Shown here: one piece after another, positions 33,680-63,057 of the stretch | How positions within the stretch are numbered: the stretch's first letter is position 1 | How the letters are laid out: every line of letters starts with the position of its first letter | Source: Luteitalea sp. | GTDB lineage: Bacteria > Acidobacteriota > Vicinamibacteria > Vicinamibacterales > CAVVIG01 | Assembly (NCBI GenBank): GCA_009380045.1 | Contig: WHSN01000002.1 | Span: 9,744-73,743 of the forward strand | Reading direction: 5' to 3' | DNA length: 64,000 nucleotides | Made by a program: the position numbers and the translations under genes | The notes under the pieces: model-generated | Told to the model about the DNA's origin: nothing | What the model saw: the letters and a program-made list of their open reading frames with translations, nothing else | Databases searched by the model: none

Positions 33680-33819
33680 TGCAGGGATGACAGGATGGCA
33701 GGATGGCAGTGATTGCAGGATGGACCGGATGGAAAGGATGGCAAGAAGGTCGGATGGCAAGAAGCTGTAGTTCTGCCATCCGGCCATCCTGCCATCCCGC
33801 CATCCTGCCAGCCTGCAAT
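33680..33819. repeat. intergenic inverted array of short tandem units (GGATGG(CA) x6-7 facing CCATCC x4)
   Basis: GGATGG occurs at 33693, 33701, 33718, 33727, 33736 and 33752. CCATCC occurs at 33776, 33784, 33792 and 33800. The outer GCAGG/CCTGC also pair. The element lies between the pckA stop and the gatB start. Confidence 0.9.
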
Positions 33820-40973: not shown

Positions 40974-41085
40974 GGTGACACTCCGCCCCGGTGGAAATCA
41001 GAAACGCCGCCCGCGGTGTTGCTGGGTCCGGGGAACCGGTCAGATTGTACCACCTCCAGCCCGCCGCGGCACTTCCCGTTTCCTT

Positions 41086-41936
41086 ATGTCCTTCGCCATC
41101 AGCGCGATAGGGTTGTCGCGGATGGCGGGATCCGGACTGCCGGCGGCGCAGTTTGCGACGGCCGTCAACGCCGTCGAGGTCTACGCGACGGTAACCGATG
41201 CTCGAGGGGAGCCGGTCTCTGGACTGAGCGAGCAGGATTTCGCGATCGAGGAAGGCGGCGAACCCGAGGTGATCGGCTCGTTCGCGGCGGGGAGCTTCCG
41301 CTCGCGCTGGCGGTGGCGATCGATCGGAGCTTCAGTATCTCCGAGGCGCACGTGGCCGGTGTGGCATCGGCGGTGAAGGGCTGGCTGCGCGAGTTGCGGC
41401 CCCGGGACGAAGTGATGCTGCTCGCCATCGGCAGCGAGAACGAGGTTCTGCACCCGCTGTCGGCGGACCGCGGCGCGGCCGGCGAGGCGCTCGCGAGATT
41501 GCGCCGGTGGGGGACCACCCCGCTCCACGACGCCGTGCTTGCGGCGCTCTCGTCGATCCAGGCTGGCCATGGACGCCGGGCGCTGGTGCTCTTGTCCGAC
41601 GGCAGGGATCGATACAGCCTCGCGAGCGCGGCCGACGTGATCGAGCGGGCACGCAGAGCCGACGTGCTGGTGTATCCCGTGGCGCTGGCCCGGGAGCCTC
41701 CGTCACTGTTCACCGGGCTGGCATCGGCGACCGGCGGGCGATCGTTCCAGGCCGCCGATGTCGGCACCCTGCCTTCCACGCTGTCCACGATTGCGCGCGA
41801 GCTCCGATCGCAGTATCTGCTTGGCTATACGCCGTCGCGGCCGATGACAGAGGGCCCGGCCTGGCGATCGATTCGCGTCACCGTGAATCGTCCCGGGGTG
41901 CGCGTTCGCGCCCGGGAGGGATACCTGGCGCGATAG
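41086..41936 (+). CDS. VWA domain-containing protein (TIGR03436-like), split into two frames as sequenced (apparent 1-nt frameshift)
   Basis: The N-part lies in the frame of ORF 40822..41376 (AVNAVEVYATVTDARGEPVSGLSEQDFAIEEGGEPEVIGSFAAG). The C-part lies in the frame of ORF 41016..41936 (ELPLALAVAIDRSFSI...LLSDGRD...). One extra G in the G4 run at 41289-41292 joins them seamlessly. Confidence 0.7.
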
Positions 41937-41938
41937 GC

Positions 41939-42150
41939 CAGTTGGTCACTTGGTCATTGGTCACTTGGTCATTGGTCATGGGTCATTGAGTCATTTGGCC
42001 ATTGATCTGGTCATTTCCTTGTGGTCATTTCATGACCAAATCACCAGATGACCACATGTACCGTGTCATTTCATCGACAGATCACCAAATGACCCAATGA
42101 CCAACGACCCAATGACCAACGACCCAATGACCAACGACCAAAAGACCAAC
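41939..42150. repeat. intergenic inverted array of TTGGTCA-type units (left arm) and TGACCAA-type units (right arm), ~210 nt imperfect hairpin
   Basis: The left arm (41939-42030) contains TTGGTCACTTGGTCA x2-3 plus degenerate copies. The turn is TGGTCAT-TTC-ATGACCA at 42022-42038. The right arm contains GACCCAATGACCAAC x3 (42091-42135). The element lies between convergent genes. Confidence 0.9.
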
Positions 42151-42163
42151 TGTACCGCGTGCG

Positions 42164-42622
42164 TCAGACGCGTCCCGTCCATGCGCCGATCGCGGCGTTG
42201 CCTGCGCCGTAGGAATGCAGCACGGCGAGCGCGTCGGCGGCGCGCGGCTCGCTGTGGATCGCCACCAGCACTCCGCCTCGAGCGGTGAGTGCTTCGAAGA
42301 TGCGCGCATCGTGCGACTGGAATCCGACGCGGCGCATGGTTCCGGCGAGCCCGAGCGTCGCCAGATCGCGGGCCGCGCCCTGCAGCGGGGCGACGATGGG
42401 ACCTTTCATGAGCACCGCCCCGACGGCGCCCGATTCGACACGCTCGCCCGGCCCGCCAAGGACCGTCTCGATGAGCGATGCCACCTCGCTGCTCTCCTTC
42501 GCCATGATGCTCAACGACGCGGACGGCAGCCCCGCGGCAATGAGCGCTCCAAGACCCTTCTGCGCCCACGCGACATCCTGAAACACCCCGACGGTGAAGC
42601 GGCCAGTCTCGACCTGGATCAT
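42164..42622 (-). CDS. hypothetical protein (possibly general-stress YflT-like; weak)
   Basis: 152-aa ORF with plausible composition (MIQVETGRFTVGVFQDVAWAQKGLGALIAAGLP...). Function not recognised with confidence. Confidence 0.5.
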   Translation of the reverse strand: MIQVETGRFTVGVFQDVAWAQKGLGALIAAGLPSASLSIMAKESSEVASLIETVLGGPGERVESGAVGAVLMKGPIVAPLQGAARDLATLGLAGTMRRVGFQSHDARIFEALTARGGVLVAIHSEPRAADALAVLHSYGAGNAAIGAWTGRV

Positions 42623-42675
42623 GCGCGCAACGATATCACGAGCCCCTCAGGCGCCGCATCCCGCGCGTCGTTCGT

Positions 42676-42710
42676 GCATCTCGCGGCACTCATCTCGCAT
42701 CTCGCGGCAC
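42676..42710. repeat. direct repeat GCATCTCGCGGCAC x2 with 21-nt period in a divergent promoter region
   Basis: Exact 14-mers at 42676-42689 and 42697-42710, between the divergent ORF 42164..42622 and the tonB-like gene. Confidence 0.6.
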
Positions 42711-42924
42711 CCGCCCCAGCACGCGCAAGGCAAAACGCCGACGGTGCTGGCGACTCGGCAGCACTTTACCGCGTCAGGCCCACATGCCTTCTCCCGGTGA
42801 CGGAAACCGTCTCTCGAGCGGTTCGTCCCAGCAGATCCGGAGCAGCCCGAGAGGCATTTCTTTTGCAGTTGCCTCGTTGACACCCGTGCGCCACAATATT
42901 TCCACGAGAGATATTCAAGTCCCC

Positions 42925-43845
42925 ATGGTAGAGACCCTTCAATCAGGCGGAGCTCGCACGAACGTGTCCGCCGGGCATCTCTCGGTTCACGTGGAAGGGG
43001 CACACCCCCCGGAAGTCGTGTTCAGCCTCGAGCAGCAGTCCAAGCGGCTCGGGCCGGCATTTCTCACTTCGTTCGTCATGCAGATCGTCGCCGTCCTGCT
43101 GGTGGTCGCGCTGAGCCGGTACGGAGTCAGCATGGCGGGCACACCGGCAATCCTTCCGGAGGAGCCGAACAGCAACATCGTGTGGCTCAGTCAGCCAGGG
43201 CCCGGCGGCGGCGGTGGCGGCGGCGGCAATCAGATGAAAGAGCCGCCGCGACAGGCGGAGCTGCCCGGCAAGGACAAGATCACCGTCCCCGTCAGCAAGC
43301 CCGTTCAGATCGAGCCGCTCAAGCAGGCCAGGGTCGAGCCCGAACCGATTGCGCAGCTCAATATCCCCGCCCAGGAGCTGTCCGCTTCGGCGCTGGAGCT
43401 GCCGGGCGCGATTGAGGCGCCGCCCGGTCCTCCAACCCCGTCACAGGGAAGTGGCGCGGGAGGAGGCGCAGGGTCGGGACGCGGATCGGGGATCGGATCG
43501 GGCACCGGCTCCGGGCTGGGTCAGGGTTCGGGAGGCGGCACGGGGGGCGGTGTCTATCAGCCGGGCAACGGCGTCACCATCCCGGTGAAGGTGCGCGAGG
43601 TGAAGCCGGCGTACACCTCCGACGCCATGCGGGCGAAGATTCAGGGCACGGTGTGGCTGCAGTGTGTCGTCCGCCCCGACGGCAGCATTACCGATGTGCA
43701 GGTGGTGAAGTCGCTCGATCCGGTGTTCGGTCTGGATCAGGAGGCCATCAAGGCCGCCCGCCAGTGGATGTTCCGCCCAGGCACGCGCCTCGGCCAGCCG
43801 GTGTCGGTGCAGATCACCATCGAGATGGAGTTCACGCTTCGCTGA
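42925..43845 (+). CDS. energy transducer TonB family protein
   Basis: From ATG 42925 there is a TM anchor (FLTSFVMQIVAVLLVVAL). Gly-rich and Pro-rich spacers follow. The C-terminal TonB domain reads KPAYTSDAMRAKIQGTVWLQCVVRPDGSITDVQVVKSLD..GLDQEAIKAARQWMFRPG. Confidence 0.8.
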   Translation: MVETLQSGGARTNVSAGHLSVHVEGAHPPEVVFSLEQQSKRLGPAFLTSFVMQIVAVLLVVALSRYGVSMAGTPAILPEEPNSNIVWLSQPGPGGGGGGGGNQMKEPPRQAELPGKDKITVPVSKPVQIEPLKQARVEPEPIAQLNIPAQELSASALELPGAIEAPPGPPTPSQGSGAGGGAGSGRGSGIGSGTGSGLGQGSGGGTGGGVYQPGNGVTIPVKVREVKPAYTSDAMRAKIQGTVWLQCVVRPDGSITDVQVVKSLDPVFGLDQEAIKAARQWMFRPGTRLGQPVSVQITIEMEFTLR

Positions 43846-43899: not shown

Positions 43900-43938
43900 A
43901 AAAAAGGCCCGGGCGGCTTGTGCGCGCCCGGGCCTTTT
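43900..43938. terminator. bidirectional intrinsic terminator (A6 - GC hairpin - T4)
   Basis: GGCCCGGGCG (43906-15) pairs with CGCCCGGGCC (43925-34) across a 9-nt loop. It is flanked by AAAAAA upstream and TTTT downstream. It lies between the convergent tonB-like and groEL genes. Confidence 0.75.
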
Positions 43939-43949
43939 CAGTGTGAACG

Positions 43950-44060
43950 GAGAACGAGAAATCTTGAATCGGGAACGTCAAATTTCTGAATGCAGAATTC
44001 TCGACCGGCCAGACCTCGTCACGAATTCTTCATTCCCAATTCCCAACTCCTAATTTCACG
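43950..44060. repeat. AT-rich imperfect palindromic element downstream of groEL
   Basis: AGAATTC (43994-44000) faces GAATTCT (44023-29), and GAATCGGGAA (43966-75) faces TTCCCAATTC (44033-42). The right arm carries the tandem TTCCCAA TTCCCAA CTCCTAA. G+C is visibly much lower than in the flanks. Confidence 0.6.
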
Positions 44061-52780: not shown

Positions 52781-52850
52781 TCGTTGGTCGTTGGTCGTTG
52801 GTCGTTGGTCGGTTGGTGTCGGCGTTGATGTCGGTCGTCCGTCGTTGGCC
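52781..52850. repeat. tandem heptamer array (TCGTTGG/TTGGTCG x4-5 plus degenerate copies), single arm
   Basis: CGTTGGT is repeated at 52782, 52789, 52796 and 52803. It then decays into GGTTGGTGTCGGCGTTGATGTCGGTCGTCCGTCGTTGG. It lies between convergent genes and shares the TTGGTC core with the arrays at 41939 and 62847. Confidence 0.85.
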
Positions 52851-62842: not shown

Positions 62843-62846
62843 AGAA

Positions 62847-63057
62847 TTTGGTCATCTGGTGATCTGGTCATCTGGTCAACGATTTGGTCATCTGGTCAAC
62901 GATTTGGTCATCTGGTCAATGATTTGGTCATCTGGTCGTCTGGTGATCTGATCAATGACTGGGTCTGATCGATGACCCAATGACCCAATGACCCAATGAC
63001 CCAATGACCCAATGACCCAATGACCTAATGACCAACGACCAATGACCAATGATTGAC
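62847..63057. repeat. intergenic inverted array: (GATTTGGTCATCTGGTCAAC)x4 left arm facing (ATGACCCA)x6-8 right arm
   Basis: 20-mers lie at 62861, 62881, 62901 and 62921. Perfect 8-mers ATGACCCA run from 62972 to 63019, followed by ATGACCTA, ATGACCAA and further degenerate copies. The arms are largely complementary (7 of 8 per unit). The element lies between the ribBA stop and the ffh start. Confidence 0.9.

Follow-up and report, generated by a model that had tools for sequence, protein, structure and literature searches.

The window analysed here, a 64,000-nt stretch of a Luteitalea sp. contig (WHSN01000002.1), carries at 41939-42152 an element in which a G/T-rich tandem array faces an A/C-rich array, the two arms being able to pair as a long hairpin. 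Our favoured reading, held with reasonable confidence, is that this element is a gene-less member of a family of intervening-sequence-like hairpins with heptamer-repeat arms, whose full-size members carry a PF05635 (S23p) gene. Each arm of such a hairpin is a tandem array of 7-8-nt units, and the two arms converge, the G/T-rich strand running 5' to 3' toward the centre on both strands. Because the full-size version with this same architecture encloses a PF05635 gene, the family would be the extragenic counterpart of the S23p-bearing 23S rRNA intervening sequences. The finding is real and not a chance artefact, and the arrays, their polarity, the hairpin potential, the genome-wide family, the enclosure of PF05635 genes and the association across genomes were all directly observed. 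The element has three parts:

41939-42015, plus strand: left arm, G/T-rich, about ten TTGGTCA-type units in an 8 + 7 = 15-nt super-period (Tandem Repeats Finder (TRF), sequence and inverted-repeat search).
42016-42083, no strand: degenerate centre, with decayed units from both arms and the turn.
42084-42152, plus strand: right arm, A/C-rich, (GACCCAATGACCAAC)x4 plus GACCAAAAGACCAAC (TRF and inverted-repeat search).

An earlier note on this DNA had described TTGGTCA and complementary arrays facing each other, with a 15-nt super-period and a turn at 42022-42038, and this layout was confirmed by TRF and by the sequence itself. In the left arm, TRF reported 10.3 copies of period 7 (TTGGTCA, 41942-42015) and 4.2 copies of period 15 (TTGGTCACTTGGTCA, 41942-42004, 87% matches), the regularity being greatest at the outer end. 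The right arm gave 4.0 copies of period 15 (GACCCAATGACCAAC, 42091-42150, 95% matches), and its reverse complement reads GTTGGTC/ATTGGGTC, that is, TGGTCG plus TGGTCA units. The turn, TGGTCATTTCATGACCA (TGGTCAT-TTC-ATGACCA), lies inside the centre. No ORF was found in the centre in the sequence or in the ORF list, and a BLAST of 42000-42095 against the genome returned unit matches of 20-24 nt only, with no unique core common to other copies. As the centre contains no ORF, this copy could at most be a gene-less derivative of a PF05635-type hairpin.

The inverted-repeat search paired 41939-42003 with 42088-42152, two arms of 65 nt with 77% complementarity and many alternative pairing registers; together with the folding, it showed terminal inverted repeats with long-stem potential. 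The folding was compared with shuffled controls, as the earlier note had proposed. The RNA of the plus strand reached -106.9 kcal/mol (z -9.3), that of the minus strand -129.8 kcal/mol (z -11.9) and the DNA -59 kcal/mol (z -7.7), and none of the 200 shuffles equalled the native energy in any of the three cases. Over 41930-42165 the minus-strand RNA is 23 kcal/mol more stable than the plus-strand RNA, and many of the arm mismatches that are A-C on one strand are G-U on the other. The G+C content is 0.46 in the element and 0.70 in each flank, in agreement with the drop noticed earlier. A scan of the whole 64-kb window against Rfam gave no match at the gathering score, and no rRNA match either.

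The element is one of many in the genome (assembly of 4.30 Mb in 251 contigs, 66% G+C, 90% complete), which contains about 100 intergenic arrays of three unit families. The motif scan found 63 arrays of the TGGTCA type and 37 of the CAGGAT type, while shuffled hexamers gave 0-5, so that the motif is not unique to the window. Among arrays with at least four copies, periods 8 (88 arrays) and 7 (45) predominated; after merging there were 125 arrays, 101 of them intergenic. Enrichment at contig ends was mild (11 observed, 6.4 expected). The spacers that hold elements comprise 45 co-directional, 16 convergent and 9 divergent ones, out of genome totals of 2341, 506 and 512, respectively.

The polarity of the arrays is strict. 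Of the pairs formed by adjacent arrays, 20 were convergent and none divergent (p = 2e-6), the G/T-rich arm leading whichever strand is read; a TRF-based count gave 20 vs 1, the exception being the junction between two neighbouring elements. For arrays that appeared single, the median distance was 14 nt to the gene 5' of the G/T-rich strand and 97 nt to that on the opposite side, and 50 of the 56 were nearer to the gene on the 5' side (p = 1e-9), with start-side distances depending on our own gene caller. Nevertheless, 24 of these 56 had a degenerate 3' partner arm with at least two exact complementary cores. Since many single arrays have such a decayed partner, convergent pairing is the underlying fact, and a gene-boundary process as the source of single-array polarity is weakened. 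All-frame stop codons were also discarded as the cause of the orientation, because GGATGGCA/TGCCATCC has no stop codon on either strand.

The link to PF05635, which is not visible within the window and is absent from the earlier note, was found in the same assembly, where each of the three PF05635 genes is placed between a G-rich and a C-rich arm that abut the neighbouring genes:

C74:16584-16898: PF05635 gene between TGGTCGT x6 and CGACCAA x5.
C199:25402-25692: PF05635 gene between GGATGGCA x6 and TCCTGCCA x8.5.
C67:1281-1577: PF05635 gene between GATTTCAG x8.6 and CAAGTCGC/ATCCTGAA.

The arm units of these genes are those of the two dominant gene-less unit families of the genome, whereas such arm cores occurred in only 6 of 89 PF05635 loci of other genomes (7%). 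A PF05635 ORF in the loop, which the window element lacks, is thus present in three sister elements of the same genome. The C74 protein matches the Xanthomonas S23p structure PDB 2GSC (E = 4e-9); the two whose arms are of the CAGGAT type resemble each other closely and share only 16-18% identity with the protein flanked by TGGTCG arms.

The association extended well beyond this genome. Of 61 genomes of the same order, 39 have PF05635, in up to 17 copies, and 19-21 of 33 loci had a G-rich left and a C-rich right arm, the unit being particular to each locus. Among 80 PF05635 loci from named genomes of ten or more phyla, collected with a narrow PF05635 protein alignment, 54 had both arms, 18 had one and 8 had none; the orientation was the same in 44 vs 1, and 93 of 108 arms had period 7. 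The Xanthomonas vasicola locus, for example, reads CGGGAAT x4.4, gene, CCCATTC x4.3, with arms of the GGGAAT type. Arm units co-varied with PF05635 protein similarity (Mantel rho -0.11, p = 0.003). In 16 genomes sampled by arbitrary 100-kb stretches, 57 arrays of period 7 or 8 were counted in the eight genomes with PF05635 and 6 in the eight without it (p = 0.001), half of these six being G+C-rich and coding-like; within-family contrasts inside this sample were 8 vs 0 and 3 vs 0 arrays.

PF05635 also resembles Avd, the accessory protein of diversity-generating retroelements (PMC10053308). No RVT_1 reverse transcriptase was found in the assembly, so the PF05635 genes here are not part of such a retroelement, and repeat addition by a reverse transcriptase was rejected. 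An rnc gene is present.

Three further arrays of the family are located in the window:

62846-63052, plus strand: T-type sister element, ATTTGGTCATCTGGTCAACG x4.8 facing ATGACCCA x10.5, between co-directional genes.
52781-52848, plus strand: single-armed T-type array, TCGTTGG x10, 4 nt past a stop codon.
33680-33816, plus strand: C-type sister element, GGATGGCA facing CTGCCATC, with the same 8-mer as the arms of the C199 PF05635 gene.

The genes flanking the first are presumably ribBA and ffh, and those flanking the last presumably pckA and gatB. The array at 52781-52848 is built of the TGGTCGT unit, as are the arms around the C74 gene. It had been proposed that the arrays at 52781 and 62847 share their core with the element, and TGGTC indeed occurs in both. 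Contig C64 (2758-3443) has two complete T-type elements head to tail, with TTGGTCA ... GACGACC/ACGACCA arms and an internal repeat of about 60 nt each, which looks like a tandem duplication of a whole element.

Outside the window genome the unit itself is patchy. The TGGTCA x3 pattern occurred in 16 of 151 genomes of the order; it had 48 matches in the window genome, was almost missing from that genome's own family and appeared sporadically in other families of the order. The array class endures while its units turn over between lineages.

Several groups of described sequences come close to this family. Arrays of intergenic 7-nt units, GGGAATC in Xanthomonas and GGGGA(C/T)T in Nostoc, form 70-75 convergent pairs per genome, with the G-rich strand close to the ORF on its 5' side, whether at a start or at a stop; they are scarce between divergent genes, vary in copy number and sequence among close relatives and have no established function, and their interpretation rests on G-quadruplex formation (Rehm et al. 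2015, PLoS One, PMC4692102). The arrays described here follow the same rules, being genome-wide, intergenic, composed of units of about 7 nt, paired convergently and close to their 5' ORF (at 2 nt and 11 nt in this element). They differ in mixing periods 7 and 8 and in that TTGGTCA has only GG, so that no three-tetrad quadruplex can form. The units TTGGTCA, ATCTGGTC and GGATGGCA all have GG at most, without the GGG of a G-quadruplex, and the strict polarity is therefore independent of such structures. No link to S23p/PF05635 was drawn by Rehm et al., yet the X. vasicola PF05635 gene sits between arms of their GGGAAT type.

S23p genes were first met within 23S rRNA intervening sequences, whose origin and the role of S23p are unexplained; that of Coxiella forms a stem-loop from terminal inverted repeats around an S23p ORF, with two or three strain-variable tandem heptamers ahead of the ORF and an RNase III cut in the stem (Warrier et al. 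2016, PMC4990558). The intervening sequences of Coxiella and Leptospira have in common with the present family a stem of terminal inverted repeats, variable tandem heptamers in an arm, a sporadic distribution and a presumed selfish nature, and their PF05635 ORF in the loop is matched by the full-size sister elements. They differ in location, being inserted in helix 45 or 25 of 23S rRNA, whereas this element contains no ORF and lies between two protein-coding genes. Their stem of 28 bp also contrasts with arms of ten or more units here.

TAACTGA direct repeats are intergenic heptamers found genome-wide, patchily across phyla (Beggiatoaceae, cyanobacteria, Bacteroidetes), in a fixed orientation to the adjacent gene, often ending 1 nt before a start codon without Shine-Dalgarno sequence and varying in 7-nt length steps (MacGregor 2015, PMC4679880). 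The start-adjacent arrays of the window genome look alike, but the TAACTGA arrays have another unit, 2-6 copies and, with one inverted case, a single direct array. Among the cyanobacterial short tandemly repeated repetitive (STRR) heptamers of Mazel et al. 1990, one unit is reportedly TT(G/T)GTCA; it would then be an identical heptamer, likewise repeated in tandem between genes. The STRR hosts belong to another phylum and have about 41% G+C.

At many genes of contigs C155, C35, C36, C234, C251 and C218, the A/C-rich array reaches the called start codon without a Shine-Dalgarno sequence, and in some cases the ATG lies inside the last ATGACCA unit. Either the start calls near arrays are unreliable, or translation of such genes begins without Shine-Dalgarno sequence.

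The relation between the two arms bears on the view that these are plain long simple-sequence repeats, made by polymerase slippage favouring 7-nt units, which face each other by chance and have nothing to do with PF05635. In this element the 8 + 7 super-unit of the left arm differs from that of the right arm, and other pairs combine period 7 in one arm with period 8 in the partner. Within a unit family, k-mer sharing was barely higher between partner arms than between non-partners (p about 0.06), and partner arms folded at -1.42 kcal/nt, compared with -1.33 with non-partners (p = 0.07); the arms of this element reached -1.23 kcal/nt together and -1.27 with foreign arms. Co-adaptation of the arms by compensatory evolution was not significant in either the k-mer or the folding test and was rejected. 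The differing super-units and the weak likeness of partners indicate that each arm homogenises independently, as slippage would do, and there is little sign of selection on the hairpin as a structure. The turnover of units between lineages also fits slippage, an idea cited by Rehm et al. However, slippage does not predict 20 convergent against no divergent pairs, nor arms of the same unit family in 17 of 20 pairs (51% expected, p = 0.003), nor the reuse of three unit families at about 100 sites, nor the enclosure of PF05635 genes and the 57 vs 6 arrays with and without PF05635. As a complete explanation, we consider it unlikely.

The surroundings of the element allowed us to weigh a possible role at gene ends. 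It is flanked by two convergent genes:

41016-41936, plus strand: upstream gene, von Willebrand factor A (VWA) domain protein (Pfam VWA 8.5e-08, VWA_2).
42164-42622, minus strand: downstream gene, conserved 152-aa protein convergent with the VWA gene, without Pfam match.

The start of the VWA gene is 41016 in the ORF list and 41313 according to our own gene caller. The element occupies the 227-nt spacer between these genes, beginning 2 nt past the VWA stop (41936) and ending 11 nt short of the stop of the 152-aa ORF, so it does nearly fill the spacer, as had been noticed. This arrangement, with no other terminator within the spacer, would suit a selected bidirectional terminator or 3'-end stabiliser of both genes, a hairpin that stops polymerase or 3' exonucleases. 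The very strong folding of either strand and the higher density of arrays in convergent than in divergent spacers point the same way. Against it, the terminator search found no U-tract at the element, its sole match being weak, internal and at chance level (41996-42013), though the genome uses canonical terminators, such as the one at 43915-43942 past the TonB-type gene. Moreover, most family members occupy co-directional spacers, often just ahead of a start codon, an arm matches foreign arms as well as it matches its own partner, and the junction is specific to the lineage, the orthologues of the 152-aa ORF having other 3' neighbours and no such array. We find this explanation improbable, and the terminator or RNA-stability element suggested in the earlier note does not hold as a purpose-built structure.

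The comparison with relatives was made with other genera at no more than 80% protein identity, none of which has this exact junction. Orthologues of the 152-aa ORF were found in 22 of 31 relatives, every one in another genus, and on 80 metagenome contigs at 80% identity or less. In the relatives, either tatA or a divergent flavoprotein gene (assigned to this type from its GxGxxG N-terminus alone) lies ahead of the ORF, which is followed on the same strand by the promoter-like motif cttttgcagttgc...gtgcgc..aatat and a TonB-type gene. In no relative examined did the VWA gene adjoin the 152-aa ORF, and the relatives compared had no array at the corresponding 3' junction, with other 3' neighbours there. 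Compared with all the relatives examined, the window shows an inversion of the ORF with respect to the TonB-type gene, and the VWA gene takes the place of the ORF's usual upstream neighbours. The inversion and the absence of the VWA neighbour in relatives imply that the element-bearing junction is lineage-specific. The local rearrangement spans 42164-42925, and its two junctions bear the hairpin element and a 15-nt direct repeat (42676-42705); we infer that the element marks a lineage-specific rearrangement junction.

Two motifs were noticed near these genes. The first, cttttgcagttgc-N(10-16)-gtgcgc(g/c)a(c/g)aatat, is promoter-like, lies upstream of the TonB_C-domain gene and is kept across genera (42858-42900 in the window; also past the 152-aa ORF in L002, L004, L005, L046, L070 and L089); it departs from the sigma-70 consensus, a scan for which gave no promoter-like site. 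The second, cgtgatacattac(a/g)c(g/c)ccATG, is conserved in about 15 relatives (for example L049 and L078) immediately ahead of the 152-aa ORF, its last three letters being the start codon, and reads cgtgatatcgttgcgcgcATG in the window (42623-42645, minus strand); it looks like a -10 element positioned for a leaderless or near-leaderless mRNA. Beyond the TonB-type gene, the spacer before groEL (43944-44055) has a bidirectional canonical terminator (43900-43942) and then low-G+C repeats, TGAATCGGAGAACGACAAATCTC x2.2 and ATTCCCA x3.4, the latter being a GGGAAT-type unit, as in Xanthomonas.

The spacers flanking the 152-aa ORF carry heptamer arrays in many relatives, built of about a dozen different units. 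Upstream of the ORF, C exceeded G on the coding strand in 17 of 20 arrays (two of these rows being the same array, and locus L008 being counted in the upstream class), and in the first array past its stop G exceeded C in 5 of 5. Relative G017 had no array in a spacer of only about 25 nt. Very long arrays were seen at comparable positions, namely CGCACTCT x21, GGTGCCG x22 and CCCAGATC x22 (L005/L058 1289-1482, L087 1838-1987 and L171 8548-8720, respectively). An RNA rule of A/C-rich leaders before starts and G/U-rich trailers after stops was rejected, as it is contradicted by the flavoprotein gene divergently upstream of the 152-aa ORF, which in many relatives has the G/T-rich strand directly before its start.

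These data also bear on the proposal of an array of binding sites for a TGGTCA-recognising DNA-binding protein, whether a regulator or a nucleoid or partition-type protein. The element offers about 20 reiterated TGGTCA/TGACCA half-sites, and the core is found at 63 sites of the genome, with scattered occurrences in other families of the order. But a spacing of 7 or 8 nt would put successive sites on different helix faces, the sites are missing from nearly all genomes of the same family, and the arrays have no tie to particular gene classes. As one and the same spacer carries different units from lineage to lineage, a dozen of them in all, the protein-binding array mentioned in the earlier note is unlikely as a conserved regulator site, and we regard the proposal as a whole as very improbable.

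Being dispersed, intergenic, palindromic and gene-less, the element could also be a classical transposase-driven miniature inverted-repeat transposable element (MITE) or belong to the repetitive extragenic palindromic (REP) or REPIN sequences. In Enterobacteria and Pseudomonas, REP/BIME sequences and REPINs are palindromes scattered outside genes, often past stops, that can stabilise mRNA 3' ends. The element shares with them the dispersed extragenic palindrome; REPs are single conserved palindromes of 20-40 nt mobilised by RAYT (Y1), whereas the arms here are tandem arrays, and the Y1/RAYT transposase (PF01797) is absent from the assembly. There was no second full-length or near-identical copy, no conserved terminus or core, no target-site duplication at the element ends and no Rfam match, the BLAST matches being at unit level on 20 contigs. 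Membership of the MITE and REP/REPIN families was rejected on these grounds, and an origin of this sort is hardly credible. The earlier wording, "slippage-prone or MITE-like", remains the closest of the options then listed inasmuch as it describes a dispersed, gene-less and fast-changing repeat family.

We therefore return to the gene-less member of a PF05635-bearing family. Gene-less copies would derive from, or be seeded and maintained by, PF05635-bearing elements, as MITEs depend on autonomous partners, and each arm would afterwards lengthen, shorten and homogenise separately through replication slippage. Upon transcription from either flanking gene into the element, the RNA would form an imperfect hairpin, about 90 bp long. 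Judging by the analogous intervening sequences, this RNA is probably a substrate of RNase III, which would cut it, leaving both convergent mRNAs with a processed, stem-ended 3' end.

Several points weigh against this reading. The 68-nt centre has no PF05635 remnant and no unique sequence in common with the full-size C74 element, so that origin by deletion is not demonstrated. The main unit, TGGTCAT, is one base off that of the C74 arms (TGGTCGT), and no PF05635 gene with TGGTCAT arms was found in the 90%-complete assembly. Gene-less arrays number about 30 per PF05635 gene, and two genomes without PF05635 still have one or two plausible arrays each, in a 16-genome comparison that is small and incompletely corrected for phylogeny. 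The dependence might also be the reverse, with pre-existing hairpins capturing PF05635 genes. RNase III processing of the element is pure analogy, and the strict polarity is unexplained by this model.

A bolder reading, which we put forward as rather doubtful, addresses PF05635 genes and their inverted heptamer arms as an unrecognised self-propagating element that crosses phyla, in which the protein and a host polymerase or nuclease would lay G-rich 7-nt units in a polar manner. The units would be laid or copied at DNA ends or gene boundaries and would seed hundreds of gene-less arrays, including the GGGAATC arrays of Xanthomonas, the cyanobacterial heptamers and the TTGGTCA arrays. The present element, on a lineage-specific junction of gene order, would then be the scar of a laying event and not a product of slippage.

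The element itself probably matters little to the organism. We read it as probably selfish or neutral filler and not a purpose-built terminator, because it has no U-tract, its arms are not co-adapted and relatives have no array at the 3' end of this gene; some incidental effect on RNA is nevertheless likely. In practice, such arrays break short-read assemblies, make spurious ORFs and can mislead gene-start calls. One Logan contig that carries the identical 152-aa ORF stops 54 nt into the array, and the spurious ORFs mentioned in the earlier note are found in the ORF list, extending into the arrays.

What is new is the TTGGTCA unit variant, which was found in none of the descriptions consulted, whereas the array class itself, polar convergent 7-nt arrays (PMC4692102), has been described before and left unexplained; the earlier note, which recognised no described repeat family here, is thus only half right. 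The published accounts of heptamer arrays in bacterial spacers are without explanation (Rehm et al. 2015, PMC4692102; MacGregor 2015, PMC4679880). The interest lies less in this element than in the link to S23p/PF05635 at the level of the whole class. STRR repeats (1990) and a 2007 report of an excess of long simple-sequence repeats with 7-nt units reportedly went likewise unexplained. The arrays keep their strict inward polarity without G-tracts able to form quadruplexes, and PF05635 genes lie within the same arm architecture in this genome, in others of its order and across at least ten phyla, with Xanthomonas as one case, arrays being nearly absent from the sampled genomes that lack the gene. 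If this link is causal, heptamer arrays and the function of S23p would merge into a single testable question: does S23p bind, cut or propagate the arms?

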